Of a DNA stretch of 64,000 nucleotides, positions 25,001 through 54,556 are shown one piece after another. The number at the start of each line of letters is the position of its first letter. Position 1 is the first letter of the stretch. The notes under the pieces were generated by a model, which worked only from the letters and a program-made list of their open reading frames with translations, did not search any database and was not told where the DNA came from. This DNA is from Blasia pusilla (taxonomy: Eukaryota): positions 23,312,001 to 23,376,000 of the forward strand of contig CM114271.1 in the NCBI GenBank assembly GCA_050084515.1, read 5' to 3'. The position numbers and the translations under genes are program-made.

Positions 25001-26449
25001 GGAGTTGCCCGACAGGGTGGTGGAGCTGCCCGTGGAGGAGGTAGAGTCCTACCACCTAGATGCATCGAGGGAGATGCTGGACGTGAGGCTAGGATGGCTG
25101 CTCAGATACATCAGCTACAAGAGCAGATTTCCACTATGGCATTCAAATTACCCGATGCCGGATCCGTGGCATCGACATGATATGGAGCAGCCAGAGATAT
25201 GGAGGATCCTGATTGGATGTGTGGGGTTGCCCTGATGGAGGCTGCCAGAGTTCGATGGGTCCTGATCAGAGTTCCTGGAGAGTTGGTGACGTTGTTGGTG
25301 TGCAAGCATGGAGGGCGATGAGAGAAGCGAGTGCGAAGACTCCTATTGTTGATGTCGAGCACGTTGTTGGGGCCGGCCACCATTGTGTACCGCGCTCCTT
25401 TATTTTTTGCTTCCGATGTTATGACGTTGGGGGGTACGTCCACTGAGGCTTTTCAGTTGGCCGCTACGCTATGTGAGCGTGGAGTTGGAGTTCCTGCATC
25501 ACGTTCAGAGGTGATTGCAGAGGAGGTGATGGACCTGCCCTTGGAGCAGATGCTCGGGCCGTCCATGTCAGATTCATGGTAGGCTGTGACTGCTAGGATG
25601 GCGGAGATGCACGCTAGACCCGCGATAGAGCATGCCATGGCTTCTCTTGGTGCTGTGTTGCTGGAAAACCGAGGAGAGGTCTTCTAGTTGGTGAGTCCCG
25701 AAGGTAGAGCTTTTAGTCCGCAACGCGTCTTGTTGGATTCAGGAGCGCAACCCCTGATGTTGGGGAAAGCGTCATTCAGAGGATTGGGCTTGACAAGAGC
25801 CAATGTGGAGCGTTGTCTGTTTCGGACTCAAACATCCTTGGGTGGAGCGAGTACCACACATTATATCACCCGACAAGAGGTTGTGGTGAGTATTCGCCCA
25901 GGACATCCTACAGATAAGTACGTGGTGCGAGCCAAGGTGATAGTGACTCATGAAGAGTCCTACAACGTCTTGGTTGGTGGAGCAGTGTTATACCCGATGG
26001 GGTTTTCCCAGGACTATTGGGAAGAGTAAGCGTCCTACAGACCAGAATAGTAGTTAGGTGATGGGCGCCTTAGCTCATTACCCATTCAATTCATACGTGC
26101 ATTGATCGAGCAATGGCCATGAGAGATGGCGACCTTGGCTGCATTTAGCAGTGCCATCATTTGGCCTAGTGATTTGATTGAGGGACATGTCCATGCAGAG
26201 GATACTCCCCTTCCTGAAATTTCTATGGAGAGGAGTGTTATGGTAACCGCATCATTATGTGGAGGAGAGGTGCCCCTGTGGGGCTCGACTGAGGAGCTTC
26301 AACGATTGGCAGATGAGCACGTGCAAACCGCGTGGAGCGAGGTGTTTGCACTGGAGCATGACGGGCCTAAGGAACCTGAGGTAGCAATGAGTGCTACGAT
26401 GACACCCTTGGATACCACATCCATTGTGTGCTGTACCCCAGAGGAGGGT
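21532..26449 (+). mobile_element. Ty3/Gypsy family A, copy A1: 5' terminal repeat, long UTR, gag and protease; ends where copy A2 inserted
   Basis: Starts TGTCACGTC; gag GPRRFSGAVGTIELHDF; knuckles CWSCGGAHHQRDC and CDYC..YGHTCARC; protease VLLDSGAQPLMLG (25688-26029); colinear with 26550-31555. Confidence 0.9.
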
Positions 26450-29400
26450 TGTCACGTCTTCTAGGATAGATCGGTGGGATCTAATAGAGCGCCTTCATGA
26501 GTAGTGGAGGACACGCCCAGTAGGTCGAGGGTGACTTGCTGAGGCCCTTGGATAGATTGGTGAGATCTAGTAGAGCGCCTTGGTGAGTAGTGGAGGACAT
26601 GCTGAGTAGGTTGAGGATGACCTGCTGGGGCCCCGGGAAACCTTAGAGAGCAGGTTTCCCCTTCGTTTCGGCTCATTTGGAGCCATATTGAGGAACTTAC
26701 TATTTTAGGTAAGTACCATTTTGAGTATATGATCGACTTACTATTTTTGGTAAGTGGCCCTTGACCTCCTACATCAGGTCAAGAGCCAAGGAGGTGACTT
26801 GGGAGAATAGGTTACCATGGAGAGAGCTTGGGAGAGGAGAGGGGTATACCTCAAGGAGAGAGAGCTTGAGAGCTCATTCTCTCTTTGTTGAACCTCTTGG
26901 CATGAGGCGGCGGAGCTATGGTACCTTGCCTTGTGAGTGTAACCCAAGCCTCTCATTAGGAGAGTGGGTTTGGTTTGACATGAGAGAGAGTGCACACCTT
27001 TGAGAGCTATGGTGTGAGATGGTGGAGAGAGATTGGATCTTACTTTACAAAGAGAGAATGAGAGAATGAGAGAGTGAGAGAGCTTCATGGGGGAGCTCGC
27101 TGGTCACTCGCTGTTTTTGCAGGTTGGGGACCGTATTCCCCGTTGAATGGCTCATGGGAGTGCTCACCGGAGCAAGGGCTGCTTTCATTACTCTTTACAT
27201 TTGTCGATTTTTCGTGTGGAAGAGTGGCGCGCGGAAGCGCTGCCCAATTTCTGATAGGGATTGAGTATGGGGGCGGGTTGCCCCATGCTGGTGCTCTCAA
27301 GAGCACCATGTAGCTTGCTGATTTGTATTTTTACAGATGTTACATTTTCGTTGGGAGAAATCAGCGCGGGAGCGCTGCCAAATTTTGTGTAGGAGAAAGA
27401 GACATTAGGCTTTACGACAGTCCCCATCAGTTTTTACTGAAATGTCCGATTCTAAATATTTTTTGATGGTAGCATAGATCATGAAGCTGTGCACGCTGTG
27501 CAACAAACAAGTGCACAATTTGGAGTTGTGAGCAAAAAGTTATGGGCAATCTTGTAAAGCTGCCATTGCTAGGCGATTTTTAGGGTTAAATCGTGCAAAC
27601 CCTAAATCAGCCGCCACACCGGCGGCGGCCGTCGCCATCATGGTCACCGTCAATGGTTGATGGTCAACCGTCACCGTCATCGGTTGGCCATCACCATCAG
27701 CGGTCAACCGTCACTGTCAAGGGTCCACCGTCCATTGTCCACCCTTTGGGTGCCATTGCTGCCATTACGGAGTGGAGGGTCTTCCATGACGTTCGTTGAT
27801 TCCTTGACTTGCGTCGCCACCACGTACTTTGTTTTGGCCGCCACCGTCATCATAGTTTCTTCATCAACCAGTGAAGGCAAATGACCTCCGGTTATGGTAT
27901 TTGAGTTTTGATTTCATGCTGCTATGTTGTGATTGGTAGCCGCTCGACAACGATCGAGTATCGTGCCGTGACGTTTGTAGCCGCAACGCGCCGCTGATTG
28001 CTGCGCCGTGCCGCTCGTGGCCGCACCGCACCATCTCGATCGCGGAGCCGCACCGTCATTGTGGAGCAGAGTGTGGGATTATTATTGATTGAGGAGGGTA
28101 TGCCGCCGAGTGCCGCATCCCACCATCGAGGGCCGTGCCGTTCGTAGCCGTTCCGTGCCGCCTGCAACGCCGCACCGTTCCGCTGGGACCGCACTGTCTA
28201 TCGAGGAGTTTTGAGCAGCATCAGTACGGGAGGAGTATGACTTGCTGATTGGAGGAGTTGTCTCCATGATCGAGTTGGGGTCGAGATTTGCAGTTGCTGA
28301 GGAGCGACATCGACATGTGTTCAGGTTACCCATTCTGGTCCTTTACCCTGCACGTGTGAGGGATTCTGGGATTTATTTGGGGATATTGGGTGTGTGGATG
28401 CTGAGAGCATCATTTATGTATGTGGTTTAGGGGACATAGACGTGTGTGGGATGTCGGGAGTTGAGGGTAGGTTGTCGATGAGATGATAGCTTGGTCGATT
28501 TGCCGCACCACGCCGCGTGTTGCCGCACGTTACACGCCTCGGGAGAGAGAGTGTAGATCGAAAGTGCCGCATGTTTGGGATGAGTGATTGAGGGATTCCT
28601 CACGAGGTTCAGTGTGATCGGGTGAGAGGGGCACGAGGGTCATCACGGAGTCTGTTCGGGACTTTGAGAGGTGAGGTGGTGAACCCGAGAGTAGCTCTAG
28701 AGGTTTTACGCGGAGTGGCGCGAGGTTTCGAGGGTCTCCACGTGAGGGACCACCTCGACCTCCTTCTGTGTCATCGTCAGACGAGGGGGAGGGTGTAGAG
28801 GAGTTTGTGAGCACATCGCCACACATTGTGAGTGGTCCTACCAGTTGGGCGTACAAGATGGACGACCGGGGTAGAGGACGCAGAGGTTTTCAGTGCGATG
28901 AGGGGCACGATTGAGTTGCACGATTTTATAGCGAGTTTAGAGTTGGTGCGACTCCTGGGCCGGCCAGAACTCTAGAGAGTTCAACCCGTTTCTGACATGG
29001 AACGGTATGTTCTAGCATTTAGAGGGGGCGCCCATGGACGAGTACCATGAGTTCTCTCAGAGATATGCATGTGAGATCGAGGCGTGGAGGCTCTACTATG
29101 ACCCATATTATGTGTCATGGACGGAGCTGTTCCCAGATGAGAAGGAGGAGTCAGGAGAGGCTACTGCCTCTTCCACTAGTGACGTTTTAGGAGGGGTCAC
29201 TCGCATGGGAGCAGTTGCACCGTCTAGTCGCGTTCGTCTCAGGTTCAACCCTCTGGTTGAGTTCTTTGCTGAGTTGAGGGCGAGCTACCAGGGGGTACGG
29301 ACGGAGAAGTTGCGGAGCATCCACGACTTCCAGAGGCACTCGGGTGAGAGTTTGCGTGAGGCTTACACTCGCTTGCGCCGGTTGATCAACGTCACTCAGG

Positions 29401-32400
29401 GGGTGATAGAGGCTCAGGCTATCCAGTCATGGTATGCGATGCTGGACCGGACCCTACGGACACGAAAAGTGCGGGGGGGCTTCTTATGAACACCTCCCCA
29501 CGTTGAGAGATGTTTTTAGGACCGCCGAGAACATTGAGCGCAACATGGCCGAGGAGAGCGTAGCCACCATGGGATCTGGCGAGAGCAATCACGATTATGC
29601 ACCACCTGCGGCAAAACGTGGACTCGAGATAGGTCGATGCGGGCACCACGAGCTCAAGGAGGATACCGAGAGGCCGTGCCACAGAGACCTGCGCCTTCAT
29701 ATGCGGCTTAGCAGCAGCCGCCTACTTTTACTTGTTGGTCATGTGGTGGAGCCCATCATCAACGCGATTGCACTCATCAGGGTCATGGACGTGTGCCTCA
29801 GCATGGAGGAGGAGATGGTGCTGCACCAGGAGGTTATCTGTGTGACTATTGTCAGAGGTATGGTCATACACGCGCCAGGTGTTTTAGTTTACATCCTGAG
29901 TTACGTCTGGACCGAGGGCCAGAGAGGGCACCAGAGCGAGTAGCCGGTCCGGGTGGGCCTAGAGATCGTGCACCAGGTGGTCCCGTTGGGGGACGAGGAG
30001 CTGGAGTTGCCCGACAGGGTGGTGGAGCTGCCCGTGGAGGAGGTAGAGTCCTACCACCTAGACACGCCGAGGGAGATGCCTTTGGGACGTGAGGTGGGAT
30101 GATCGCCGATGGGAGATACAACAACTATAGGAGCAGATTGCCGCTATGGCATTGAGGTTACCCGATGTCGGATCCGTGGCATCGACATCATATGGAGCGC
30201 CGAGATCCGGAGGATCCTGGATGGATGTGTGGGGTTGCCGGATGGAGGCCGCCGCAAGACGCTGGCGTGGAGCGGTGCAGAGTTGGATCCACGAGGATGG
30301 GGGAAGATGAGATGCACTAGGCTTCCTCAATCTTTCACGTTGTCGAGCGATGAGGACCCCATCGATGGGTCCTCATCAAAGTTCTTGGAGAGTTGGTAAT
30401 GTTGTTGGTGTGCAAGCACGGAGGGCGATGGGAGAAGCGAGTGTGCGACTCCTATTGTTGATGCTCGGGAGGGCATGTGTCGAAGCACGTTGTTGGGGCG
30501 GCCACCGGGGGTACCGCACTCCTTTATTTTCCGCTTCCGATGTTGTGGCGTTTTTACGCCGCTGGGCTTTTTGGCTGGCGCTTCACTATGTGAGCGCGGA
30601 GTTGGAGTTCTTGCATCACGTTCAAGGTGATTGCAGAGGAGGTGATGGACCTGCCCTTGGAGCGGATGCTCGGGCCGCCCACATAGATTCATGGCAAAGT
30701 CTGCGGTCGCTAGGATGGCGGAGATGCCCGCTAGACCCGCGATAGAGCGTGCCATGGCTTCTTCTGGTGTTGTGTTGCTCGATAACCGAGGAGAGGTCTT
30801 CCGGTTGGTGAGTCCCGGAGGTAGAGCTTTTAGTCATGGCAGCGCCTTGTTGGATTCAGAGCACAACCCTTGATGTTGGGGAAAGCGTCATTCAGAGGAT
30901 TGGGCTTGACGAGAGCCGATGTGGAGTGTTGTCCATTTCGGATCTGAGACATCCTTGGGTGGAGCGAGTACCACACGTATATCACTTCGATAGGAGGTGG
31001 TGGTGAGATTCGCCGGGACATCCTGAGATGATTCCGTGGTGCGCGCCAAGGCGATAGTGACGATCTTTGAGTCCTACAACGTCTTGGTTGGTGGAGCGAT
31101 GTTATACCCGATGGGGTTTTTCCTGGATTCTTGGGAGGAGTCGGCCCTCTGAGACCAGGATGGCGTCGGTGATGGGCGCCTTAGCTCATTACCCGTTCGA
31201 TTCACAGTGCGATGATCGAGCAACGGCGAGAGAGATGGCGACCTTAGCAAAGATTTAGCGGTGCCATCACTTGGCCTAGTGATTTGATTGAGGACATGTC
31301 CATGCAGAGGATACTCCCGTTCGACATTTCTATGGAGAGGAGTGTTATGGTAGCGCATCATTCCGTGGAGGAGAGGTGCGCCTGGGGCTCGACTTAGAGC
31401 TTCAACGACGATTGGAGATCTTGACGTCGGCACCGCATGGAGCGAGGCGTTTGCACCAGAGCGTGACGGGTCTGAGGAACCCAAGGTAGCGGGGAGTGCT
31501 ACGATGACACCCTTGGATACTACACCCATTGTGTGGTTTACCCCGGAGGAGGGTATTCGAGTGTTAGATCTCTTTGGAGGGATGTCATGACCATACGGAT
31601 TATGTCGTAGAGTATAGTGTGCTAGTAGAGGCCATTCCTTATGTAGGACCGTGGTGGCTTGGTAGAGATGCGGTTCCATACATAGGGTTGGGGGTTACTC
31701 AGTTGGGGGTGAGTTTCCCAATAGGGCCCACTCTTAGGTTGGAGGATATAAGGTGGAGTGCACTCAAAGAATAGTCAGTTCTTTGAGTTGAGCCTGTTGC
31801 GTTGGGAGTTAGCCTTGGTAGTGAGTAGAGCTCTTGGCTATGGTGTTTCCCGCAAGCTTTGATCTAGATTCTCCCATCGTGGAGTGGGTTTGGCTTGATT
31901 GTATGTGATTGTAAACGTGTTTTATGACAGTAGGTCTTTCACGGATTTCACTCAAAGAAGCGGAGTAGATCGATGGTAGCCGATTGTAGATCAAGAGGGA
32001 TCTGGTTAGGGTTGATTGTGTACTCAGCCGTGGATGTTCGCGGCTTGTTGCCTATGTTGGAGGTGTGAATCAGGTGCGTGGTTGCTTGGGAAAGAAGCGC
32101 CTTGCTGAGAACTTTCCAACGCGCTGTAGATCGCCGGATTTCGTCAAGGGAGTTGGAAGTTATCAAGCATTGAAGATTCTGGTTCGTGTTCGACAGTTTT
32201 CTGATGTGGAGAGCTTGGAGTGCGGAAGCTCTGTTGAAGTTCATCCAGATCGGGTGAGAGGTTCCTATTGCTACTTGTATTTTGATCTCATGTGAACCTA
32301 TCAGCTCGAGTGCGTGGAGCATTGCGGATTTCTGCGTGCATGAAACTTGGCGGAAGCGCTGTCGGATTTGCGGTTCTAGAGGTGTATGGACAGCAAGTTT

Positions 32401-33327
32401 GTCTGATTTTTAGCTCGGAGTACGGAGCTCGGTTGTAGCTGAGTTTTTGTGGGGAGATATCTATGGTGGTCAATTGAATTTTGATCGAAACAGATTTGAT
32501 TTTGGTCACGTATTTGTGAAGTAATTTCTGATCGAAATTTTGCGGACTAGCTCAAGGTCTGGCTATGGTGGACAGCGGATCGGAGGGGCTGGTTGGTTGG
32601 TGACTCGTTCATTGTTGGAGACGCCTATCCCGTTGGGGGCGCCCTGGTTGGACCTCACGCCCAAGCAAGCAAGCTTGCTTGCTTGGGCGTGAGGCAATTT
32701 TTGCAGGATTTGGGATTTGAGTTTTGCATAATTGGTCACCCATCTTTGGGCTATTCTGCCTGGAGGACGCTTAACTGCTGAGTTCTTCACTATGCCAGTG
32801 TACAGACTGTTGTAGCTCATTTGGTGCTATTCGGAGATGTGTTAGGTGCTTTATGCATCTCAAGTTTTTGGTTGATGTACCTCTAGCGCATAGTACGGTG
32901 TAGCCTCTCCATGCAGGTGATATTTTCAGGTGCTGCGAGTTCGACTAGCACGTCATCGACCCGGCGGAGTAGCTATTGCGTTAGAATTGTGTGGTGGGTT
33001 TTGTGGATTCAGAGGGCACCATGTTTGGTGGATTGTGTTACCTTGATTTCCATTTGCGATTGGAGGGTTGTCGTTGGACTTCCTGTGTTTGGATCCCCTC
33101 CATCGTGCTTCTTGCTTGCGCGCCCATTGTTAGGGTTGACGCTGATTTCCAGAGTAGTGTTACTCCTGTGTGCTACCGGTAGTGAGGCTGGAGGGATGAC
33201 GAGTAGACTGTGGGAGACTTCTTGTGGTGATGACAAGTTAGGTTGCCTACACCCATAGCTAGTAGAGCTAGAATAGTATAGCGACATCCACGTCACTTGG
33301 TAATTTGGTGGGGGTGCGGCATCGACG

Positions 33328-34760
33328 TTGGTCATCACGGAGCTGTCGGGTGGTCTGGTTGGGGACCGTGGCGCGGACAGTGGTGGTTTCACACGGAGTG
33401 GATTTAGGTATCGGCTACCTTTTCCACTTCCGACGGTTGATGAAGAGGAGGACGAGGGTGTTCCAAACACCGAGTCTTCTACGTTGTTATCGAGTGTTGC
33501 AGCTCCATTGATTTGGGACATGGACGGTGGATATGGGGCCATGAAGGGCCCACGACGATACTCGAGTGCAGTGGGTACCATTGAGTTGGAGGACTTCATG
33601 CAGGAGTTTGATACGTGGTGTGATATGCAGATGTTGCGGAACGCCACGTTGTTTACACCCTTCTTGGCTTGGAAGGGGTTGTTTCAGCACTTGGAAGGAC
33701 CACCCATGGATGATTACCATGAGTTTAGGAAGGACCATGTTGCTGAGATTGAGGCATGGAGACAATATTGGTCTCCAGGCTATGTGTCTATCACCCATGG
33801 TGGTATTGGTAGTAGTGCTCCTACTATGCCACCCAGCCCGACGCTGAGTGGTAATGAGCACGAGCCGGAGTGGGGGTACCGGTGGGGGTACTAGTGGGGG
33901 TACTAGTGGAGGTTCTAGTGCCCCACCATTGTTTAGCCCGGTTGCAGAGTTCTTCAAGAGGTTGAAGAAGAACTATCAAGGAGTGAAGACGGAGAAGTTG
34001 AGGAATCTTCAGGACTTTGAGTGAAAGACTGGTGAGAGTCTTCGTGAGGCATACACGCGTATCATGCGACGCTTGATTTCGATTACCTGGGGTGTGACGA
34101 GGATCAGCGATCGATTTTGGTATGGGATCTTGGACAGAGATTTGCGCCGTAGGGTACGTGATGCTACTCTTATGAGTGATGATTCACCCACATTGACCCA
34201 TTTGTTTGCTCTATCTGAGAAGATTGAGCTTAACATGGTGAAGGAGAGAGTGGTGACATCCGCATTCAGTAGGGATACAACTACTACTTCTCGTGTTTAG
34301 CCGCCCACCTCACAGTCTCGTAGTAGTGGTGGTGGTAGTAGTAGTGGGAGTCGTGGGGGGTACACGCGACCTCAGTCAAGTCCTAGAGGGACATTTGTGC
34401 AGAGACCATTGCCTTCATTTGCTGCCCCGCAGCAAGGACAATCATGTTGGACATGTGGAGGTGATCATGTTAGGAAGTTTTGTCCCCAAGAGGATGGGAG
34501 ACGGACTTTGGAGGATGGGCCTCAATCGGCCCCAACTCAGTGTGATCATTGCGGGAGACTAGGTCATCCTCGAGAGCGTTGCTTTGATCTTCATCCAGAG
34601 TTGAGATCAGGCCGTGGCCGTGGTGGAGTAGCTCCGAGAGGCCGAGGTGGTAGAGGTGGTAGGGGTGGTAGAGGTGGACCAGTGGTTGGAGAGCCTCACG
34701 GTAGCTACCCCTACCACTACGGCAGAGTCGCCTACTATGGTCGCCAAGATTGAGCAGATT
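33328..34760 (+). pseudogene. Gag of element B1 with two zinc knuckles and an RGG tract
   Basis: GPRRYSSAVGTIELEDFMQEFDTWCD; CWTCGGDHVRKFC; CDHCGRLGHPRERC; RGRGG repeats; stops and frameshifts. Confidence 0.85.
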
Positions 34761-36149
34761 GGAGCAGGTTGGCTACCATGGCTTGTATCCAAGATAGATC
34801 AGGTTTGGGAGCAAGGGCTTCCACCTCTTATGGAGGGGATGATCTCTCTTATATGGCGAGTGCAGCACAGGTTGAGGCATCAGCTGCAGTTACGAGAGGA
34901 GCCACTCGAGCGTCAGACCCACGTGGTGCTACTGTGGAGTTGGACCCACAGAGGGTGAGGGGGAGGCGGTGCCAGGCTTCCCAATCATTCTTGTTGTCCG
35001 AGGTGCTTAGGACTCCATCCATGGTTCCCACGCTGACCTATTGAGCCGGCAGTGGGGATCGAGGCATCTACATCGCGTGTAGTAGACACGGATGCAACAT
35101 CCAATGTAGTATTGCGGATGGCAACGGTGTTGGGATCCCCATTGTTTTCGCCACGAGCCGATGGCTTTAGGAGTTGACTTAGCTCTTGTATTTGATTAGC
35201 GACCACGTTGTGTGAACGTGGGGTGTTCTTGCTACACGTGTTGAGGTGGATGAGGGTGTTGCGGTGGAGCGACCCTCTATGTCGAGTAGCATTGAGTACC
35301 GGTGCTACTTGGCAGGTGCAGCGCTAAGATGGATGCATTACCAGCCCGGCCAGCCATTGATCGTGAGAGGCTTACACCTGGTGTATGTATGTTGGACAAC
35401 CGAGTGGGATCTTTGATTGGTGAGTCCTACAGAGGTGTATAGACCGGATAGAGTCTTGTTAGACTCGGTGCCCAACCTTTGATGTTGGGAAAGGCGGCAT
35501 GTATTGGTTTGGGTATTCGGAGGTCGAGCTTGAGCCTTGCCCATTCCAGATTCAAACATCACTTGAGGAGCCAATGATAGGTCTCAATTCATGACACGGG
35601 AAAAGTTTTTCTGATTGAGACTAGATCATGCGATTGATAGCTCCCGGTTGGGAATATCTCGGTAGTCACATCACCGTAAAGTCGTATGATGTACTAGTTG
35701 GAGGAGCGATGATTGTACCCGATGGGTTTTCGGATGGATTCTTGGGACTGAGACAACGTCTTATAGACCAGGTTGGCAATCCGGGATGGACGTATGAGCC
35801 AAGTTCCTGTGAGATTTATTTTGGGGCTCGACCAGAGGGTCTTCCCCAACAAAGATTAGCATATGTGGCTGGTTTTAGTGGAGTAGTCACTTGGCCAAGA
35901 GACTTTTGGAGGGTAATGTTTTACGCTATGGATTCTCCTGCGCATGAGGAGGTAGAGGAGGTCCCTATTTTTGCAGCAAATGGCATCCTCATCGTTGGAT
36001 GTGCCACTTTGGAGTTCAGCGGTGCACTAAGGCAGAGGCGATCGCCTAGTGCAGAGGCTTGGTGTGAGGTGTTATACCTCACAAGGAAGAGGAGGCCCCA
36101 CGGCGGTCTCCTACTACTGGCCTAGTTGGTTATCCCTTTGGATACTACA

Positions 36150-37120
36150 CCCATTGTATGGCAGTATCCGCCGGAGGGCATTTGTGTGTTAGATCTCTTT
36201 GGTGGGATTAGCACTAGTTTGGCGGCAGTGTTGCAGGCCGGTATTCCTGTGCGGAGATACGTGTATGTGGAGCGAGATGAGACGGCCGAGAGAGTCTCAT
36301 CCCGACATATTGGTCAGTTGATGCGGAGATATCCTGAGTTGTTGCCGCCATCAGCTATTCGTGGGTACCAGCGTGCTTTACCATCACACATTGCATTGTT
36401 GGGGGCGCAGGACCTTGAGAGGGTTGGTCTTGTGGATTTGGTGATTCTTTGGATGGCCATGTCGTGGTCATACACGTCTTTGGTCGTGGTGAGGGATTAC
36501 ATGACCCTAGGTCTCGATTGTTTTGGGAGATGTTACGGGTGTTACGACATCTTCAGTTCATCGAGCACGTGCTCAGCTTATATTCTCGAGAATGTTCCAT
36601 TGTTGGGTGACACTCGGACCCGGATGATGGCGAGTGTTCATGAGGTGCGGTCTTGATTGGACCAACGTTGTTGTTGGATGCGCTTGAAGTTGGCTCGCGA
36701 TGCACATCGCCCACGCTTGTGGTGGACAAACTTGTTGCCTAGGAGTTTCTCGTCGAGCATATGATGCAAAGGCGGGATCCTCGCCTTACAAAGTGGATAG
36801 TATCTTGATATCTTGGCGACTTTCTCAAGTGGTGAGGGTTATTGATCGGTCACCCATGGCGTGGTGAACCGTGTGGGCCACCTAGGATGGCACTACCCAC
36901 ATTTGTGAGTTTTCCGTGTCACATGCCTGAGGGAAGGTGGTCCGGCTTGTATGGGATTCTCATGGCGGCGAGTTGGTGGAGCCTAACGCTGATGAGAGAG
37001 AGCATGCGATGGGATTTACATCTTGGCGTGGGGTTGCTTCTATTTCTAAGGCTTCACGACGTCATGTGTTGGGGTCAGCCATGGACCTGAATTGTTTGAC
37101 TTGGATTTTGAGTCTTGGTA
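36150..37120 (+). pseudogene. C5-cytosine DNA methyltransferase domain (DNMT3-like) inside the Gypsy pol region
   Basis: Motif I VLDLFGGIST; acidic motif II YVERD; motif IV VDLVI..GWPC (ggatggccatgt ~36451); SRLFWEMLRVL; motif VI YILENVP; motif VIII HRPRLWWTN; motif IX EPNADEREHAMGF; motif X RRHVLGSAM. Canonical order, with frameshifts. Confidence 0.9.
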
Positions 37121-37364
37121 TGGCGAGCGTCGACTTCGGACTATGTCTGTGGGTCTTCCACCCCTTGTAATGAGCTCGATGGCTACCGGGACGGTAGAGG
37201 CATCGGCTGGGGGCGAGGAGAGTAGTATTTTGCATCCTTGGAGTAAATGGGATGTAATGGTTGGGCATGTGGAGTTGGTTGCTCATGCTGGTAGAGGAGT
37301 TATTTGCTCAGATGATGGTGTAGCTAAGGGTGTATCATCTTGTGAGGGGGTTGCGTAGGAGCCA

Positions 37365-38830
37365 ATGGCATCATCCTCTCCCTCTAGTATGCCAGTGGAG
37401 GAGACTTGGGAGCCATTACTTGGGCCCAAGCTTACGGGAGGTGAGAAACGACGCTTGACACAGTTCCTAGGTGCTTATAGGAGTTGTTTTGCCTTTAGCA
37501 TGAAGGAGTTGGGTTCTCTGGTTGGACCCGGTATACGGATTGATTTGGCTAGTGATACGCCAATCTTCCGTCGTCCCTACCGATATAGTGATATGGAGAG
37601 GGACCTGATTCAGAGTAGGACGTTGGACCTTTTGGAGGCTGGATTAGTGGAGTTGTCGCATGGAGAGTATGCATCAGCCACTGTCATGCTTGCTAAAAAG
37701 GATATGCATGGCAGCTACACGGATAGGCGGATGTGTGGAGATAACCGTCCTATCAATCGGCAAACCAAGGCCGATAGGTATGCCATGCCTACACCTGAGG
37801 AGATCTTTGATGTGGTGGGACATGCAAAGATTTTTAGTACTTTGGATCTTCGGGCAGGATACCATCAATTGCCGATTCGGGAGAGTGACAAGGCCAAGAT
37901 AGCATTTTGGGGTGTCAACTCTCATGGCAAGGATTGTTTGTACTAGTGGAAATTCTTACCCTTTGGGTTGAAGAATGCACCTGCCGAGTTTCAAAGAGTG
38001 ATGGGACGGGATCCTAGGGGTTGGATTTTGTTTGGTGTTACATTGATGATATCTTGGTGTTCAGTAACACGGTGGAGGAGCATCAGATACATTTGCAAAT
38101 GGTGTTTGAGCGTTTGAAAGCTCATGGTCTACGTTTGCATCCAAGAAAGTGTAAGTTCTTCCATGAGGATGTTGAGTACTTGGGTCATATGATCTATCCA
38201 GGTGGTTTGGGAGTTTAGCAAGCAAAGGTGGAGGCTATTGCACTTATTCCGCGTCCGGTAGATGTGAGTAGAGTTCGAGCATTCATGGGATTGGCGAACT
38301 ACTATCGAGGTATGTGAAGGGATTTAGTGCTATGGCAAAGCCTTTGAACCAATTGCTGAAATCAGATCAAGAGTGGCAATCGGGGGAGATGATCGGGAGA
38401 GAGCTTTTGTGGAGCTTAAGGCCCGGTTGGTGGCGGCGCCTATCTTGAGGAGACCTATCGAGGGCGCCCATTTCGATTACACACTGATTGGAGTAGGTTG
38501 GGACTTGAGCGGTGTTGACACAACATGATGATGAGCACATGGAGTTTGTGGTGGCCTATGCAAGTCGTTCGAATAATGGATGGAGTCGCGCTATAGTTCA
38601 TATGAGGGAGAGTGCTTGGCAAGAGTGTGGCTGTGGCACACTTTAGGTGTTACTTGTTTGGCACACGTTTACCCTTGTTCTGATCACCGGCCGCTCAAGT
38701 GGTTGATGGAGTCGGACAAGCTTACAGGGAAGCTTGCACGGTGGGCTCTTATCTTACAAGAGTATGACTTCGGGTGGTACATAGACTGGAGTTGCCAACC
38801 TTGATCTTTGATGGGTTGAGTAGGAACCCA
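37365..38830 (+). pseudogene. Gypsy reverse transcriptase and RNase H of B1
   Basis: PIFRRPYRYS, RMCGDNRPIN, FSTLDLRAGYHQL, PFGLKNAP, YIDDILVFS, VAYASRSN, YSSYEGECLA, DHRPLKWL, ARWALILQEYDF. Confidence 0.95.
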
Positions 38831-39189
38831 TGTACTAGCCAAGAGGATACAAGCGGGGCTAGATGGCATGGCAAGGGTGATGAGGAGATGGTGCTAGGTT
38901 GGCATGCATCCGCCTTTTATGTTGGTTAGGGGTGGACTCTAGTATGGAGGACCACATGATATCTTACTCTAGTCAGAGGGTAGATGGCCAGCCTTCAGAT
39001 CCTAAGGTTGGAGATGGTGGTACGGATCAGCGTGATATTCATGATGATGCGTTGGTGTTGGAGTTCCTACGGACCAGTAGGGTGCCAGGCATAGTGAGTG
39101 CCAAGGAGCGAGACCGTGTTCTTCAACGTGCTAAGAGGTATCGATTGGAGGGAACACATATTCTCCGCGTGTGGGAGGATGGTAGAGTA

Positions 39190-40473
39190 TGAGTAGTGCC
39201 ACATTTGGCTCAGAGAGAGCGCATTGTGCGACATGCCCATGAGGAGTTGGGACATTTTGGGGTAAAGCGTACGTATAGCTTACTCCTTGGCCAAGATTGG
39301 TGGCGTGGCATGCATACTCAGTGCAGCGATTGGTGTCACGTTGTATGGTTTGTGACCGGGTGAGGGCATCATTTAATGCCCTACACCACAATTACACCCT
39401 TGCCTATTATGGGGTTGGGTTACCGTTGGATGTGGACTTTGCGGGACCGTTATCGTTGGTATCACGACATCATCGATATGTGTTGGTGATGGTGGAGCAC
39501 TTCTCCAAGTGGATTGAGTTGGTGGCATTACGGACAAGGCAAGTGAGGGAACGGCGTATGCGTTTGGATAGAGTGCTTAGTCATTTTGGTGCACCACCGG
39601 TGAAGTCTTGACCGACCAGGGTACAAAGTTTTAGGGTGAGTTTCAGGTCTTGTGTGACAAGGCGTTGATTGATCATCGAACCACGTCTCGAGATCATCCA
39701 GAGGCGGATGGTTTGGCTGAGCGTGTGGTTTAGACGGTGAAGAGGGCATTGCGCAAGTATGGCCTACAGAAGGGGCATCTTGGAGACTGGGATATTCAGT
39801 TGCCATGGTTAGCTATGGGGTATAGGTTAGGATCGCCAAGCATCCTTGGCTTCCTTCTCACCTTATTTTTACATTAAACGGCCGAGATCCAGACTTGCCA
39901 GCAGCAATTCGTCGGGAGTCTAGTGAGGTGGTGAACCTTGATGACCCAGAGATGTGGATGAGGGTGTGTTCTCAGCGGGCGGAGCTCTTTCGAAGAGTTA
40001 TGCCAACAGCCTTTGAGAATCTTGCCATTGCTCAACATAGAGATACATTGTGGTATGCAACCACTCGGGGTGGAGGTTATGGACCATCGATTCGTAGGTT
40101 CCATGTGGGGGACTATGTCTATTTGCAGCAGATTGCACCGACAACGTTGGATGTGACGGCAGGCCGCACTATTTTACGAGTGCGCGAGGTGTTAGCTTCT
40201 GGAGTTCTCATGTTGGAGGGTCGTGATGGAGTTGTTTGGAAGGACCATGTGCATAATTGTGCGCCATGTCATCTTCCAAATGTGGATGGTATTGTTGACC
40301 CAAGCTTAGCCATGATACGTGCTAGCTTGAGGTGCATGTTGTGTGGGTCTGCTGGTAACGCAGCCCGTATGTTGGTGTGTGATCGGTGTTCTAGGGGTTG
40401 GCAAATGATGTGTTTGACTCCACGTTTGGATGTCGTTCCTATTGGAAGGTGGGTTTGTCCTCGATGTACTTAG
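39190..40473 (+). pseudogene. DDE integrase with C-terminal PHD finger (B1)
   Basis: HEELGHFG...CMVCDR (HHCC); VDFAGPL; MVEHFSKWIELV; ADGLAER; PHD CMLC...MLVCDRCSRGWQMMCL...PIGRWVCPRC at ~40333-40470 (usual His is Gln). Confidence 0.92.
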
Positions 40474-40646
40474 GAGAGGTAGATGACTTGATCTTTGCAT
40501 GATATGGATTACAGATGTGCGACTAACGATGGGGCAACCTAGCACCCGGCCTTCTGATTCGGGCACCCAAGAAGGTGTATAGCATATAGTAGATGTATAG
40601 GACTACTTGGGAGTTAGAGGGACCTAACCGCCAGTTAGGGGGGCAA

Positions 40647-41226
40647 GTTGTGGTACACTTGCGTTTGTGGATACTCTCGTCTATGTTATGTACGTATGTG
40701 AGTATGGTATATCAGCGATGTATGTTGTATGACGATGTGGATTCGCACCACAGCTGTCATGACCATACGGATTATGTCGTAGAGTATAGTGTGCTAGTAG
40801 AGGCCATTCCTTATGTAGGACCGTGGTGGCTTGGTAGAGATGCGGTTCCATACATAGGGTTGGGGGTTACTCAGTTGGGGGTGAGTTTCCCAATAGGGCC
40901 CGCTCTTAGGTTGGAGGATATAAGGTGGAGTGCACTCAAAAACGTCGATTCTTTGAGTTGAGCCTCATATGCGTTGGGAGTTAGCCTTGGTAGTGAGTAG
41001 AGCTCTTGGCTATGGTGTTTCCGCAAGCCGACCCCAGATTCTCCCATCGTGGAGTGGGTTTGGCTCGATTGTATGTGATTGTAAACGTGTTTTATGACAA
41101 AGAGGTCTTTCACGGATTTCAGTTGTGGTACACTTGCGTTTGTGGATACTCGTCTATGTTATGTACGTATGTGAGTATGGTATGTCGGCGATGTATGTTG
41201 TATGACGATGTGGATTCGCACGGCGA
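40647..41226 (+). repeat. 3' split direct repeat of B1: B(40647-40752)-GC-A(40755-41121)-B(41122-41226)
   Basis: Both B copies start gttgtggtacacttgcgtttgtggatactc; junction reads ...gcaccACA GC TGTcatgacc. Confidence 0.92.
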
Positions 41227-41230
41227 GGTG

Positions 41231-42130
41231 ATTAGCACGGGTTAGCTCTTTGCTTTTGCAAGCAGGAGTGCGAAAGTCTGAAATACTTGTATGTGGAGAG
41301 TGATGATGTTTGAGGCGCGTCTCACTCGACATGTGGCGCAATTACGCCTACATTTTCCCGACTTATTGTCTGCGTCCGCGTCTGGGTACCAGAGTTCCCT
41401 ACCGAGGGATATTTTGTTGTTGGGGCGCAGGACTTAGAGCGGTAGGGACCATTGATTTGGTCATTGCTGGTTGGCCATGTCGGGGCCAATCGAGTCTTTG
41501 GATGAGGAGCGGGTTGGTCGACACTCGGTCCAGGTTGTTTTGGGAGATGTTGAGGGTCTTACGGCAGCGATTCTGGGAGCACTAGTCTCGTTCTCCACCC
41601 TACATTCGGACAATGTGCCGATCTTAGAGACTCAGTCACGGGTCGTGACGAGTGCTCATCAGTGCGTGCCTGGATCGGCCCAAGAAGTTGTTCTTGGATG
41701 CGGCGAGTGTAGGTTCTAGAGCCCATCGCCCGCGTCTATGGTGGACCAACTTGGTGCCCCATGCGGTGTTATGGAGGGCGTATGCAGAGTGGAGCGCCCC
41801 TCCCTTTGTTAGTGGATTCCATTTCGATCCGGTCGCCGATCATAAAGTGAGGCACGATGATCGACCACCGCTGAGTGTGGTCAGGTAGGCCAGGCGCGGG
41901 CGCCTTGCCCACGTTGTGAGTTTTCCGCTTCCTATGCATACAAGGAGGCCGGTCCTGGCTTGGTTTGGGATGACCAGGTTCAACGGTTGGTGGAGCCCAA
42001 CGCCGACAAGAGAGAGCGGCGATGGGATTTCCCACAGGAGTGACGGCAGTACCATCGAGTGTCGAGGCATCACGATGCCATGTCTTGGGTCGCGATGGAC
42101 CTGAACTTCTTGACATGGATCCTCGGCTTG
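41231..42130 (+). pseudogene. C5-cytosine methyltransferase domain of copy A2 (continues from 31545-31582)
   Basis: IDLVIAGWPCRG, SRLFWEMLRVL, DNVP, LDAASVGSRAHRPRLWWTNL, VEPNAD..MGFPTG, SRCHVLG; many frameshifts. Confidence 0.88.
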
Positions 42131-42469
42131 GGAGTGGCCGGCGGCGTCGTATGAGATCGCGACAGATCACAAGTTGCGTTGGTGAGCCCCATGCTTACCG
42201 AGACGGTGGAGTGGAGGCGTGGTCGGGCGAGACCCGAGGAGATCTACGCACCAGGGAGATCGGGAGAGACACCCTTGGACTTCTTGGGATGTTTTGAAGG
42301 TACGCAAGGAGATGATAGCCACAACATCGAGCGTGGTTTGGGCACGCACGTGGAGGAGATCGAGAGTTTGCGATTGGTCGCAAGAGAGTGGCCAAGTGTT
42401 GTTGTTTGAGACGGGCTTGCACCATAGCAACCACCGATACCCGCGCCGAAGAGTCCTACCGTAGTCACA

Positions 42470-45292
42470 ATGGAGACTTGGGAGCCAGATATGGGCCCTA
42501 AGTTGACAAGAGGAGAGGGGCACCGAATACATCAGTTCCTCAGGAGTTATAGGAGCTGCTTTGCGTTTAGCATGGAGGATTTGGGTACGCTGAAGGGACC
42601 GGGGATCCGCATTGAGTTGTCGAGTGATATGCCGATCTTCCGACGACCCTACAGGTACAGTGATATGGAGAGGGCTCTGATTCAAAGTAGGAGCCAAGAC
42701 TTGGTCGGAGCAGGACTAGTGGAGATGTCGCATGGGGAGTATGCATCTGCCACTGTCATGCCCGCCAAAAAGGATGTGCATGGCAACTGGACGGATAGGC
42801 GGATGTGTGGAGATTACCGACCTATCAATCGGCAGACGAAGTCCGATAGGTATGCCATGCCCACCCTTGAGGAGATCTTTGATGCGATTGGTCACGCAAA
42901 GGTCTTCAGTTCATTGGATTTGCGAGTTGGATACCATCAGCTGCCTATCAGATTGGAGGACAGGCAGAAGAGGACATTTTGGGGCATCGATCCTCACGGG
43001 AAGGATTTTTGTACCAGTGGCGATTCTTACCATTTGGGTTAAAGAAGGCCCGGCTGAGTTTCAAAGGGTCATGGAAAGGATCTTGGTTGGTCTGGATTTT
43101 GCTAGGTGTTATATTGATAACATCGTAGTCTTTAGCACCACGGTTGAGGAGCATGAGCGACATCTAGAGGAGGTGTTTCAACGATTGCAATTACATGGGT
43201 TGAAGCTACATCCAGGCAAGTGCAAGTTCTTCTATGACCAGATTGAGTACTTGGGTCATACAATATACCCAAGGGGCCTTGGTGTTCAGCAGACAAAGGT
43301 AGAGGCTATCTCACGAATTCCACACCCTACAGATATGAGCCGTGTTCACGCATTCATGGGATTGGCGATCTTCTATCGGCGGTACGTCAAGGGATTCAGT
43401 TCGATTGCGAAGTCGATGACCTTGGTGACCAAGGTGGATCACAAGTGGCACTGGGGGGATGAGCAAGAGCGAGCAATTTAGTTGCTTAAGGACAGGTTGA
43501 CGTCCACGCCCATCTTGAGGAGACCGATCAGGGGGGCGTCCTTTCTAGTTGCACACAGATTGGAGCATGTTGGGGCTTGGAGCGGTGCTCACCCAGCATG
43601 ATGATGAGGATAAAGAGTTCTTGGTGGCTTACGCTAGCCGCTCAAACAACATTGCAGAGGCAAAGTATAGCTCGTATGAGGGTGAGTGCTTGGCTGCGGT
43701 GTGGGCTGTCGCGCATTTTAGGTATTACTTATTCGGAAATCCCTTTACCATTATCACTGATCATCAACCACTGAAGTGGTTAATGGAGTCCGACAAGCTT
43801 ACAAGGAAGCTTGCGAGATGGGCTCTGTTGTTGCAGGAGTATGATTTTTAGGTGGTACATAGACCTAGAACGCTCAACCAGGATGCAGATGGGTTGAGTT
43901 GTAACCCATGCTCGAGTCAACGAGATGCGATTGGAGCTCGATGGCATGGAGAGAGTGATGAGGAGTTAGTGTCAGGATGGCACGCGTCAGCCTATTTAGG
44001 CATGTTGGCTATGGAGAGCCAGAGTGTGGAGACTTTGATGGCGAGGTCTAGTGGAGAGTCCTTGGATCCCGAGGCCAGTGAGGAGACGACAGATGGCCGG
44101 AGATATTCATGATAATGGAGTAGTCTTGGAGTACCTTTGGACAAGCAACGTTGCAAGCACCATGGATGCTAAGGAGCGGGATCGATCCCTAGCGGGCCAG
44201 AAGGTTCCGTTGGGAGGGGACACATGTTTTGAGGGTTTGGGAGGATGGCAGAGTACACGTAGTGTCGCATCCTTCGTAGAGAGCATGACTAGTGCAACAT
44301 GCCCATGAGGAGTTGGGTCAATTTGGGGTGAAGCGGACGTGCACCTTATTCCAGATTCAGTATTGGTGGCGAGGCATGCAGACTGACGTTCAACAATTTG
44401 TTGCTAGATGCATGGTGTGTGATCGGGTCCGAGCATCGTTCAATGCTCCGACTCCACAATTGCATCCATTACCGATTATGGGCTTAGGCTATAGATGGAG
44501 TTTGGATTTTGCAGGACCTTTGCCTTTGACAAAGCCTCAGAGTTGTTATGAGTTGGTGATGGTCAAACACTGCTCGAAGTGGATCAAGTTGGTTGCATTG
44601 CCTGACAAAGCGAGTGAGGGAGTAGCTTATGCCTTCCTTGACAAAATGCTGAGTCATTATGGCGTACCGACTGAGGTGTTGACAGACGAGGGTACCAAGT
44701 TTCGCGGTGAGTTCCAAGCCTTGTGTGATCAGGCGCTGATCAGCCATCGCACGACTTCGCGAGATCATCTTGAGGCGGATGGATTAGCGGAGAGAATTGT
44801 GCAAACGGTGAAAAGGGATTTACGCAAGTATAGCTTGCAGAGAGGTCACCTAGGAGATTGGGAAATCCAGTTGCCATGGTCGGTGATAGGATACAGATTC
44901 ATCAGGCAAGCATCCTTAGCGTCTTTTTCACCGTACTTGCTACTTTATGGCCGAGAGCCAGATTTACCTGCGGCCATTTGTGGAGATGCAGGTGAGGTGC
45001 TGCACCTTGATGACCTTGATGTATGGATGTGAGCATGTTCTCAGAGGGCTGAGTTGTTTCGGAGAGTGATGCCCATGGCGTTCGAGAACTTGGCGATTGC
45101 ACAACATCGGGATACGTTGAGGTATGCGACTATTCGGGGTGGTGGTTATCGACCAACTATCCGGAGGTTTCATCAGGGAGATTATGTCTATGTGTAGCAG
45201 ATGGCACCGACAACGTTGGATGTGACTGTAGGGCGCACTATCCTGAGGGTGCGTGACGTTTTGCCATCCGATGTTCTCTTGCTGGAGGGATG
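42470..45292 (+). pseudogene. RT-RNase H-integrase of copy A2, truncated before the PHD region
   Basis: RMCGDYRPIN, LDLRVGYHQL, YIDNIVVFS, HTDWSMLGLGAVL, VAYASRSN, HAHEELGQFG..CMVCD, SLDFAGPLP, LTDEGTKF, ADGLAER. Confidence 0.93.
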
Positions 45293-45294
45293 CT

Positions 45295-48530
<3,236 letters not shown>

Positions 48531-48996
48531 GCATCATTGAGGTTGTTGTTTTTTTTCTTTGAAAGCTGGCCAATGGCCTGGCATCACTGAAGAGGGGATT
48601 GGGTCATAGTTGAGAATGAGATCAAAGGTTGCATTTTCTTGTCAAGAATCGTTGGCATATGGCAACGACATGGTTGTCGCCAACCATTTATGATACTGAA
48701 GGAAGAAGAACTAAAGTTGGTCTTGCTTTTATTTGGATATATGTCTTGGGTATGAGACTTCATCATGATCATCACAAGATCATCCCTCTACGAGTTCACC
48801 ACTCAGACATCAACTATTTCACTCATCCTTTTCATTTAGAATGTTGTTGTATTGTTATTGGATGCGCTGGGTTTCTTACCAAACACACGGGCATGGGTGA
48901 AAAGAAGATTTCCTTATGCTTATGCTCTCGTTCTTGTGGTGCCATGAGTACACAATGTGTGCATAATCCTACCTTTTTATGAAACTCAAAGCACCT

Positions 48997-49902
48997 TATC
49001 GTGCACATACACAACATACATCATTGTCACCGAACACACACACAAACACACACGATCCCATGCTAACTCATGGCATCCAAACAACGAGACAAGAAGTACT
49101 ATAATATCTGCAATAAAGTAAGATCCAATCTCTCTCTCTACACCATCTCACACCATAGCTCTCAAAGGTGTGCACTCTCTCTCATGTCAAACCAAACCCA
49201 CTCTCCTAATGAGAGGCTTGGGTTACACTCACAAGGCAAGGGACCATAGCTCCGCCGCCTCATGCCAAGAGGTTCAACAAAGAGAGAATGAGCTCTCAAG
49301 CTCTCTCTCCTTGAGATATACCCCTCCCCTCTCCCAAGCTCTCTCCATGGTAACCTATTCTCCCAAGTCACCTCCTTGGCTCTTGACCTGATGGAGGAGG
49401 TCAAGGGCCACTTACCTAAAATATAAAGACAATAATATACTCAAGATGGTACTTACCTAAAATAGTAAGTTCCTCAATATGGCTCCAAATGAGCCAAACG
49501 AAGGGGAAACCTGCTCTCTTAGGTTTCTCGGTGCCTCAGTAGGTCATCCTCGACCTACTCAGCGTGTCCTCCACTACTCATGAAGGCGCTCTACTAGATC
49601 TCACTGATCTATCCTAAAAGACGTGACAGCTGTCGTGCACATACACATCGCTACACAACATACATCGTTGTCACCAAACACACACACAACCACCCACAAT
49701 TCCATGCTAACTCATGGCATCCAAACAACGAGACAAAAGTACTAAAATATCTCCAATCGCCCCCCCTAGTGGTGGTTAGGTCCCTCTAACTCTAGATAGC
49801 TATCTATCCCTACCTACCATGACATACATCTCTCGGACGCTAAGAGCAAGAAGGCCTGGTGCTCATGTGGCCCCATCGTTAGTCGCCTTCCTATCATCCA
49901 TG
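48997..49902 (-). mobile_element. Isolated, inverted 3' end of a family A Gypsy: 3' UTR-B(49756-49631)-GC-A(49628-49114)-B(49113-48997)
   Basis: A segment matches 21532-22046; the two B copies match each other; minus-strand junction gcacgACA GC TGTcacgtc; the upstream motif matches the family B 3' UTR. Confidence 0.9.
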
Positions 49903-50139
49903 TCACAGAAAAATCATGGATTCCTGTCATCCATGTCTATTTGTAGGGACGGGACGAAACACTTTTGTTTGGTGCGTATCCTACAATGCATGGTAGTTCT
50001 AAAGCGTGAAGAGACTCACTCAGCAACGGAGATATTCCCTCCTTCCTATGGAAAATATCCACGTGGATTTTTTAAAGCCTTCTCTATTGTGATCCACCCT
50101 ACTACTAAGTTTTTGCGCCATATTATGTAGTAATTAGGA

Positions 50140-50383
50140 AATCTAATGACTTGAGTGAGTCATGCCTAATTTCATGTTTTCTATATTTTAATGTGTGTAT
50201 GACTCATGAGTCATACTCAACACTCAAGTGATGACTTTGTTTTTGCTAGACTCTAAAGAATGACTACTAGAGTGACGTTGAGTCATTCTCGTTTATGTAA
50301 GATTACGCATGACTCATTATCTAGTTACAGAGAAATATGAGTCAAGCTTCCTCTAGTCATATAAATGACATTTTCTTCTAGTG
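50140..50383. repeat. Right CACTA subterminal repeats and TIR
   Basis: atgactcatgagtcat and related copies, ending CATTTTCTTCTAGTG. Confidence 0.9.
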
Positions 50384-54154: not shown

Positions 54155-54556
54155 AAGTGCGGTAAGAGGAGAGGAAGAGAGGAAGAGAGGAGAGAGGAGA
54201 GAGGAAACTACCTTCAACTGAAATAGATACTTTTTTTTAAGAGAGTTTCCGTTGGATTGAAGAGAGGAAACTTTTTGTGTGAATTTTTTTGCACTTTTTT
54301 TCAGTTATTGGGTCCCATAAGTTTTTTTTTTTTTTTTCTCTTCCATATTTTGGCAACCCATCGAGTCCGAGGAGTTGCAAATTGCATAAAATATACAAAA
54401 CTAAAAAAGCAGTGGAATCATAAGTGTGGAATCAATCACTTTTTCCATCCAAGGTCTGGAAACAATCTACCATTTGCCCTATGCTGAATAGAGTTCAAAC
54501 TCAAAGTGAAGGTTCTTGAAAAATGAAAGTACAATCTAAAACCTCATTTTGCATCC

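Follow-up and report, generated by a model that had tools for sequence, protein, structure and literature searches.

A probable retrotransposon-borne DNMT3-like methyltransferase domain, with a PHD finger at the integrase end, in Blasia pusilla

Nested elements in the Blasia window

The stretch of 64,000 nucleotides of Blasia pusilla DNA considered here (GenBank assembly GCA_050084515.1, contig CM114271.1, positions 23,312,001 to 23,376,000 of the forward strand) is called the window hereafter and is numbered over its whole length. It contains two main nested elements, E1 and E2, which were worked out by nucleotide self-comparison together with protein-level comparison (Table 1). A first-pass annotation made from the sequence alone had placed a C5-cytosine methyltransferase of retrotransposon origin between a protease and a reverse transcriptase (RT). 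What lies there is very probably a DNMT3-like domain of a Ty3/Gypsy-type retrotransposon polyprotein, which has a PHD finger at its end and belongs to nested copies with split direct repeats.

The domain is not apparent from any single open reading frame (ORF). The longest stop-to-stop frame between 30 and 46 kb has 253 amino acids (aa), and in a three-frame translation of 35625-37946 the motifs noticed earlier are spread across all three frames. One frame of E1 reads VLDLFGG (motif I), ILENVP (motif VI) and AHRPRLWWTN (motif VIII), a second one GWPCRGHTR (motif IV), EREHAMGF (motif IX) and RRHVLGSAMDLNCL (motif X), and the third one GLHDPRSRLFWEMLRVLRHLQ, between motifs IV and VI. An intact relative of 368 aa carrying PF00145, P0001, was used both as tblastn query and as alignment reference. 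It matches E1 over 36135-36743 (60% identity, 208 aa) and 36745-37122 (53%, 129 aa), with a joint E-value of 4e-87 to 6e-88. Frameshift-aware alignment brings E1 to 72% identity with P0001 over 356 codons, with no in-frame stop and 12 frame changes, 10 of which fall within 36450-36945. The six motifs listed by the first-pass annotation (I, IV, VI, VIII, IX and X) are found in this order in E1 as well as in E2. The residues retained in E1 are F-G-G of motif I, P-C of motif IV, E-N-V of motif VI, H-R-x-R..W.N of motif VIII, E-R-E...G of motif IX and the G of motif X. Out of 1666 candidates, 34 proteins match a piece of 176 aa (36126-36653) at E≤1e-3, with a best E-value of 6.8e-58 and identities of 40-79%. 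Chance motifs are ruled out by such E-values, and at the level of sequence the E1 stretch is confirmed as a real C5-cytosine methyltransferase domain, far beyond chance.

The second copy, which had been predicted at 31545-31582 plus 41231-42130, is indeed present in E2 and is slightly longer. Its N-terminus through motif I occupies 31426-31582 and the rest extends from about 41222 to 42136. The frameshift-aware alignment gives 11 frame changes and one stop at 41583, the ENV of motif VI is changed to DNV, and E321 is changed to K. The catalytic Cys, the ENV Glu and the R-x-R of motif VIII are all present in E1, whereas E2 has Asp for the ENV Glu. The interruption of the E2 domain is due to E1 itself, which is inserted into the codons of motif I (VLDLFGG, 31561-31581) of the E2 methyltransferase.

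The two elements are collinear from gag to integrase, with about 75% nucleotide identity across RT to integrase. Their pol order (protease, RT, RNase H, DDE integrase) is also that of the relatives P0046 and P0255, and the methyltransferase lies between protease and RT in both the E1 and E2 subfamilies. Since the domain occupies the protease/RT site in two collinear elements, its presence predates the split between E1 and E2, as had been suggested initially. As read from the window and from intact relatives, the polyprotein order is gag (CCHC), protease, DNMT3-like methyltransferase, RT, RNase H, DDE integrase and PHD finger. In E2, Pfam recognizes RVT_1 on 42720-43478 and Integrase_H2C2 plus rve on 44289-45029; the RVT_1 match of the E1 RT ORF piece and the rve match of the E1 integrase are weak. 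No Pfam family was found in the leader of about 1.57 kb of E1, nor in its counterpart at 52395-54034.

Table 1. Coordinates of the elements of the window and of their parts (positions of the whole stretch)
Feature	Position	Strand	Basis or remark
DNMT3-like C5-cytosine methyltransferase domain of E1, three frames	36135-37125	+	tblastn with P0001; motifs and frame changes mapped
E1, whole element, inserted into E2	31583-41221	+	Self-comparison, protein comparison
E1 5' terminal direct repeat A1	31583-31950 (368 bp)	+	94.6% to 40755-41121; 91% to 52029-52394
E1 leader between A1 and gag	31951-33519	+	About 91% identical to partial copy 52395-54034
E1 gag	33520-34603	+	tblastn, P0008 aa 1-99 (79%) and aa 133-354 (64%); CCHC type in relatives
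E1 aspartic protease region	35225-35785	+	tblastn, P0008 aa 558-746, P0021 aa 71-259; Asp_protease_2 in relatives
E1 RT and RNase H	37395-38870	+	tblastn, P0021 aa 696-1133, P0016 (84%, 127 aa)
E1 integrase, zinc-binding and core	39034-39830	+	Collinear with E2 44102-44900, which scores above the Pfam cut-offs for Integrase_H2C2 and rve
E1 integrase C-terminal region ending in PHD finger, then stop	39868-40470	+	PF00628; Marchantia polymorpha P0352
E1 short direct repeat B1, directly upstream of A2	40646-40748	+	96% over 103 nt to 41121-41221
E1 3' terminal repeat A2	40755-41120	+	Self-comparison
E1 short direct repeat B2, downstream of A2, end of E1	41121-41221	+	E2 coding resumes directly after
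E2 5' part: terminal repeat 26450-27047, gag, protease, methyltransferase N-terminus 31426-31582	26450-31582	+	Interrupted by E1
E2 3' part: methyltransferase remainder to 42136, RT, RNase H, integrase	41222-45290	+	Protein comparison, Pfam
E2-like 5' part (repeat, gag, protease)	21532-26449	+	84-89% identical to 26550-31554
Partial third E1-type copy: A repeat, leader, gag start	52026-54160	+	About 91% to 31582-33641; P0008 aa 1-41 at 54035-54157
Isolated E2-type 3' end: B1 49757-49652, A 49628-49114, B2 49114-49008	49008-49757	-	A repeat 95% to 21532-22046

DNMT3 affinity and conservation of the domain

When P0001 alone is compared with solved enzymes, DNMT3A is the best match (6e-12), followed by DNMT3B, DNMT3C, tobacco DRM and DRM2, then by HaeIII and HhaI at about 1e-3. 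A family profile, derived from 12 diverse family domains and run against the PDB sequences, again places DNMT3A first (E=9.2e-23), ahead of DNMT3C (6.4e-21), DNMT3B (4.5e-20), tobacco DRM (2.5e-17), DRM2 (7e-14), HhaI (2e-8) and DNMT2 (3e-6). DNMT1 is absent from the matches of this profile to PDB sequences at E≤1e-3. The AlphaFold model of P0001, based on 44 sequences, has a predicted local distance difference test score (pLDDT) of 92.6 and a predicted template modelling score (pTM) of 0.90. Its best Foldseek matches in the PDB are the catalytic domains of DNMT3A, DNMT3B and DNMT3C (E about 2e-19, target template modelling score of 0.80-0.84). Motif I lies ahead of motifs IV through X, which corresponds to the non-permuted order of the DNMT3 type, unlike that of DRM. 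Sequence and predicted fold both support the view that, among solved enzymes, the domain is closest to DNMT3A/B/C, and the DNMT3-like wording noticed initially in the motifs agrees with it. The N-terminal PWWP and ADD reader domains of animal DNMT3 have no Pfam counterpart in the 18 relatives scanned; the reader seen here is the PHD finger at the integrase end.

The residues expected at the active site are retained throughout the family. Among 215 family domains, the catalytic Cys is found in 213 and the ENV Glu in all 215, the Arg pair of motif VIII in 209 and 210, and the Glu-Arg-Glu of motif IX in 202, 196 and 202, respectively. The S-adenosylmethionine-binding F-x-G-x-G stretch shows similar retention, with G55 in 207 domains. 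The Pro of motif IV (residue 139 of P0001) is replaced by Glu (GWECQ) in 93 of the 215, with the catalytic Cys retained. This Pro is conserved in C5 methyltransferases, and a Glu at this place looks unusual. As judged from these aligned sequences, the methyltransferase domain is under constraint in the family.

The PHD finger at the end of the integrase

A PHD finger closes the last ORF of E1 (39826-40470). It lies at about 40333-40467 and matches PF00628 with E=2.3e-8 and 34.4 bits (cut-off 24). Over 203 aa, the segment 39868-40476 has 81% identity with P0352, a Marchantia polymorpha protein that itself passes PF00628. In the E1 finger, a zinc-ligand His reads Gln. E2 is truncated at about 45290, where its match to P0352 ends, ahead of the PHD finger.

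The closest solved PHD fingers are those of CHD4, PHF12, ATXR5, KDM5A/B PHD1, PHF21A, DPF3, UHRF1 and AIRE, all of which bind the unmodified N-terminus of histone H3. That the finger of the element might read H3 unmethylated at Lys4 (H3K4me0) is a lead suggested by this likeness in sequence. The E1 stretch before and through the finger is also 45% identical over 64 aa to a protein of the chlorophyte type, P0055 (E=9e-19), a likeness from which it appears that the whole element lineage is common to both, and not the methyltransferase alone. Among the 355 proteins whose domain order was analysed, no PHD match was found in the five complete ones with the domain order of the window, so the finger is not universal in the group with the protease-methyltransferase order. 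PHD fingers have been described in retrotransposons more generally (PMC6673714).

Terminal repeats

The terminal repeats of these elements are split. In E1, of which the A1 repeat begins TGTCATGACC, A2 is flanked on both sides by a direct repeat of 101-103 nt (B1 and B2, 96% identical). The isolated E2-type 3' end on the minus strand has the same B-A-B succession, with 91.6% identity between B1 and B2 over 107 nt, and two independent E1-type 5' ends begin directly with the A repeat. The repeat layout is A, coding region, B-A-B, in two subfamilies. A DIRS-like layout of the same kind, A ... B-A-B, is given in the legend of Fig. 4c for KnitGypsy-Dnmt3, an element of Klebsormidium nitens (PMC5890265).

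The E1 flanks AGGGA and AGGTGA, considered as a candidate target-site duplication, agree only with a gap, and no primer-binding site was seen on reading by eye the bases beside A1. The E2-like unit upstream of E2 stops at 26449, a position homologous to 31554, and E1 enters at 31583, 28 bp further. Two 5' ends thus adjoin the methyltransferase N-terminal coding sequence of E2-type elements, which could indicate a preferred target or a recombination product.

Relatives, domain orders and phylogeny

The family is large. A profile search of 1.84 billion cluster representatives yielded 4272 proteins at E≤1e-3, of which 1277 remain at E≤1e-10 and 372 at E≤1e-30; many of these matches are polyproteins of 1500-3400 aa. 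This search and the two larger named-relative searches brought up members of this retroelement family only, and a protein atlas gave nothing beyond generic PF00145 clusters. In the intact relatives P0046, P0255 and P0186, a single ORF of 2188-2327 aa runs through CCHC-gag, protease, methyltransferase, RT, RNase H and integrase.

The close named relatives are found in liverworts (many in Marchantia polymorpha, others in M. paleacea, Riccia sorocarpa and Calypogeia fissa) and in mosses (Sphagnum fallax, S. troendelagicum and S. tenellum). In gag, in RT and at the end of the integrase, the E1 and E2 proteins reach 77-84% identity to models of Marchantia polymorpha, and some Marchantia and Sphagnum models bear in their source the name "DNA (cytosine-5-)-methyltransferase". 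The initial statement that ordinary land-plant Gypsy elements lack such a domain has thus to be qualified, since bryophytes, themselves land plants, commonly carry close relatives. More distant relatives come from the chlorophytes Haematococcus lacustris, Monoraphidium neglectum, Cymbomonas tetramitiformis and Tetraselmis striata, and distant Tetraselmis proteins share the domain order of the window. Neither vascular plants nor Klebsormidium are named among the matches listed (34, 88 and 120), which is weak evidence of absence because the word filter scored only the 8000 best candidates in two of the three named-relative searches.

Two domain orders coexist among the 355 proteins. The order RT, RNase H, methyltransferase, integrase, PHD is seen in 66 complete and 50 consistent partial models, and the order protease, methyltransferase, RT, RNase H, integrase in 5 complete and about 44 partial ones. 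In a FastTree phylogeny of 217 methyltransferase domains, the two orders require a single change (36 versus 114 rows, branch support 99). The 36 rows with the domain after the protease or before RT include both window copies, which also belong to a fully supported group of 20 rows including others of the protease-methyltransferase order. P0001, P0002 of Calypogeia fissa and P0008 of Marchantia polymorpha are among the rows nearest to them. The chlorophyte elements with the domain between RNase H and integrase form a sister group.

Proposed role and alternative explanations

In intact members of the family, the methyltransferase would be made within Gag-Pol and packaged with RT and integrase. 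It might then methylate the new cDNA, or the DNA around a new insertion, as de Mendoza et al. (2018) proposed for their own elements (PMC5890265). The PHD finger, for its part, would tie the integrase to H3 tails without K4 methylation, away from active promoters, and by analogy with the chromodomain of chromoviruses it could steer integration.

Several points weigh against the reading of the stretch as the DNMT3-like domain of a Gypsy-type polyprotein, or against an enzymatic role for it. As assembled, neither E1 nor E2 nor any of the three further partial copies can yield the enzyme. None of the five single-frame ORF pieces of the window matches PF00145 (Pfam, E≤1). Since the domain is chopped by frame changes, its assignment to the family rests on the intact relatives, in which PF00145 was above cut-off in 6 of 8, 4 of 5 and 3 of 5 of those scanned (28-54 bits, cut-off 22). 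The DNMT3 affinity is a ranking among solved enzymes, which is not equivalent to a phylogenetic position within the DNMT3 clade. When E1 is compared with E2, the methyltransferase shows proportions of non-synonymous and synonymous differences of 0.29-0.36 and 0.65-0.67 (Nei-Gojobori, 177-214 codons). The corresponding ratio of non-synonymous to synonymous rates, a comparison suggested by the first-pass annotation, is about 0.24-0.29 (0.13 for RT), with a synonymous rate that is saturated (above 1.2) and with codons picked for aligning to a relative, which lowers the non-synonymous rate. These values show only that non-synonymous change was held back. In addition, direct kinship with KnitGypsy-Dnmt3 is unproven, as no Klebsormidium protein is among the matches listed.

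The domain could have been kept without DNA methylation, as a DNA- or RNA-binding module, an RNA methyltransferase or another regulator. In both window copies the catalytic Cys is followed by Arg, at a position occupied by Gln in 199 of 215 relatives, and the Glu found in place of the motif IV Pro in nearly half of the family points the same way. The Klebsormidium enzyme of KnitGypsy-Dnmt3 gave no methylation in yeast, a result called inconclusive by its authors, and neither did SymbioLINE-Dnmt (PMC5890265). De novo CG methylation has been demonstrated in that study for Symbiodinium enzymes only, namely those of SymbioDIRS-Dnmt3 (PMC5890265), which counts against a role without DNA methylation. 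The near-complete retention of the catalytic Cys, the ENV Glu, the motif VIII Arg pair and G55 is likewise the pattern expected of an active enzyme, and a role without DNA methylation is in our opinion unlikely. The alternative that the methyltransferase is a piece of a host DNMT3 gene, in or beside which retrotransposons happened to insert, is almost certainly wrong. The names given to the Marchantia and Sphagnum models would agree with it, and E1 does sit inside a methyltransferase coding sequence. The interrupted sequence belongs to E2, however, between its protease and RT; both subfamilies have the domain at the identical place, the 217-row tree has 36 domains (window copies included) that come after the protease or before RT, and single ORFs from gag to integrase enclose it. 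A host gene interrupted by transposons was ruled out by the collinearity of E1 and E2.

The state of the E1 copy raises a different question, since its frame changes could be assembly errors in an element that is intact in the organism and potentially active. After frame correction, its domain has no stop in frame, as noted above. Between the A1 and A2 repeats there are 11 substitutions but as many as 8 gaps, of which 7 are one base long, and single-base gaps occur at 11-28 per kb, at a similar density in copy pairs of 3% to 22% substitution divergence. This equal density in young and old pairs means that some frame changes may be assembly errors rather than decay, which also counts against reading the copies as decayed. 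Among the copy pairs of 21532-45290, the single-base gaps are mostly outside homopolymers. The best public sequencing run contains a fraction of only 0.61 of the sampled 31-mers. The contigs of three sequencing runs over the window have a thousands-fold word depth, so the family is clearly high-copy in the organism of these runs. They include an extra base after 36860, beside a frame change of the window, which takes all of the depth in X3 and X9 and a minority of it in X1. From one run presumed to be of RNA came three contigs, all confined to 37044-37386. These contigs are 65-320 nt long, however, and with such a family depth they need not stem from the E1 locus. Furthermore, the change of the zinc-ligand His to Gln in the PHD finger is a substitution and not a gap, and the E1 repeats differ by 3% in substitutions, so this copy is not new. 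An intact and potentially active E1 is improbable. Its frame changes may come either from decay or from assembly error, and in the preferred explanation the copies read as broken ones of a retrotransposon whose intact members encode the methyltransferase within their polyprotein.

Wider reading and implications

DNA methylation is the main plant route to transposon silencing. A transposon with its own de novo methyltransferase would reverse this silencing relation. Within the literature searched, the Gypsy case described so far concerns one charophyte alga; with the present relatives and hundreds of sequence clusters, the range would be far broader, and the PHD finger of the integrase suggests that a writer and a reader work as a set.

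These elements could be seen as one old Ty3/Gypsy lineage extending from chlorophytes to bryophytes and equipped with a two-part epigenetic kit. The writer would be of the DNMT3 type, and the reader would be the integrase PHD finger resembling readers of unmethylated H3K4. The writer would have moved once, between the protease/RT site and the RNase H/integrase site, and the lineage would be high-copy in liverworts and Sphagnum. This is one joint and tentative claim, somewhat likelier to fail in one of its parts than to hold as a whole. If it is true, part of the annotated DNMT3 of these organisms would be transposon-borne and could add de novo methylation in land plants, and the 5'-end junctions lying within 28 bp would hint at a preferred target in the family's own DNA. 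Bryophyte gene models named "DNA (cytosine-5-)-methyltransferase" may also be fragments of transposon Pol. As a genetic model, Marchantia would allow the function of such an enzyme to be tested.

Surroundings of the elements

The observed/expected ratio of CpG is 0.34-0.38 in the AT-rich flanks (1-21500 and 45500-52025) versus 0.71-0.88 in the elements (0.71-0.78 over 21532-45500), a contrast consistent with CG methylation in the genome. On their coding strand the elements are rich in G and T, and the GC skew is +0.18 to +0.29.

Other repeats surround the nest. A (CGCT)n microsatellite of 2.26 kb (565 copies, 99% matches) extends over 7394-9651, where the GC content rises locally to 0.69 and skews are strong, and a perfect (GA)67 microsatellite is found at 46391-46524. 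An ORF on the minus strand at 19785-20378 carries DUF4218 (E=5e-19), which we take to be a domain typical of plant CACTA-type transposons. An RT fragment, also on the minus strand (47384-48061, RVT_1 with E=3.5e-11), lies between the diverged direct repeats 45321-46095 and 46942-47779. A tandem array at 60700-61054 consists of units of 64/128 nt, each with an inverted repeat (GCAACTCGTCGGA..TCCGACGAGTTGC).

Comparison with known systems

No description of methyltransferase-carrying Gypsy elements in bryophytes or chlorophytes, nor of a pairing of DNMT3 with a PHD finger, was found in the literature searched, which lacks most subscription journals. Mammalian DNMT3A, DNMT3B and DNMT3C provide the best match in sequence and fold and have the same non-permuted motif order. 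The identity is about 20-23%, and the present domain differs in being part of a retroelement polyprotein, without adjacent PWWP or ADD.

Chromoviruses, which to our knowledge have no methyltransferase, carry a chromodomain where the present elements have a PHD finger. They are alike in having a histone-tail reader at the C-terminus of the integrase, which likely chooses sites by chromatin state (PMC6673714). The EpiLTRs of Cymbomonas and Euglena are also similar, as long terminal repeat retrotransposons with a DNA methyltransferase and a chromatin reader (bioRxiv 10.64898/2026.05.21.726589). They carry an adenine methyltransferase together with a chromodomain and, at the 3' end of pol, a cytosine methyltransferase related to DNMT4, in contrast to the single DNMT3-like domain and PHD finger of the window elements. 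The same preprint mentions "streptophytes (Gypsy-DNMT3)".

The precedent in dinoflagellates and Klebsormidium had been cited correctly at the outset (PMC5890265). SymbioDIRS-Dnmt3 of Symbiodinium resembles the present family in that two domain orders coexist; it is a DIRS element with a tyrosine recombinase, whereas the window elements have a DDE integrase (rve, Integrase_H2C2). The closest known system is KnitGypsy-Dnmt3, for which the PHD finger at the integrase end makes one difference, the term PHD having 0 occurrences in the text of PMC5890265. It comes moreover from a charophyte alga, whereas the close named relatives of the window elements are from liverworts and Sphagnum mosses. The likenesses with KnitGypsy-Dnmt3 are Gypsy-type domains, an intronless and non-rearranged DNMT3-like domain inside the Pol ORF, DIRS-like repeats, conserved catalytic residues and purifying selection (PMC5890265).

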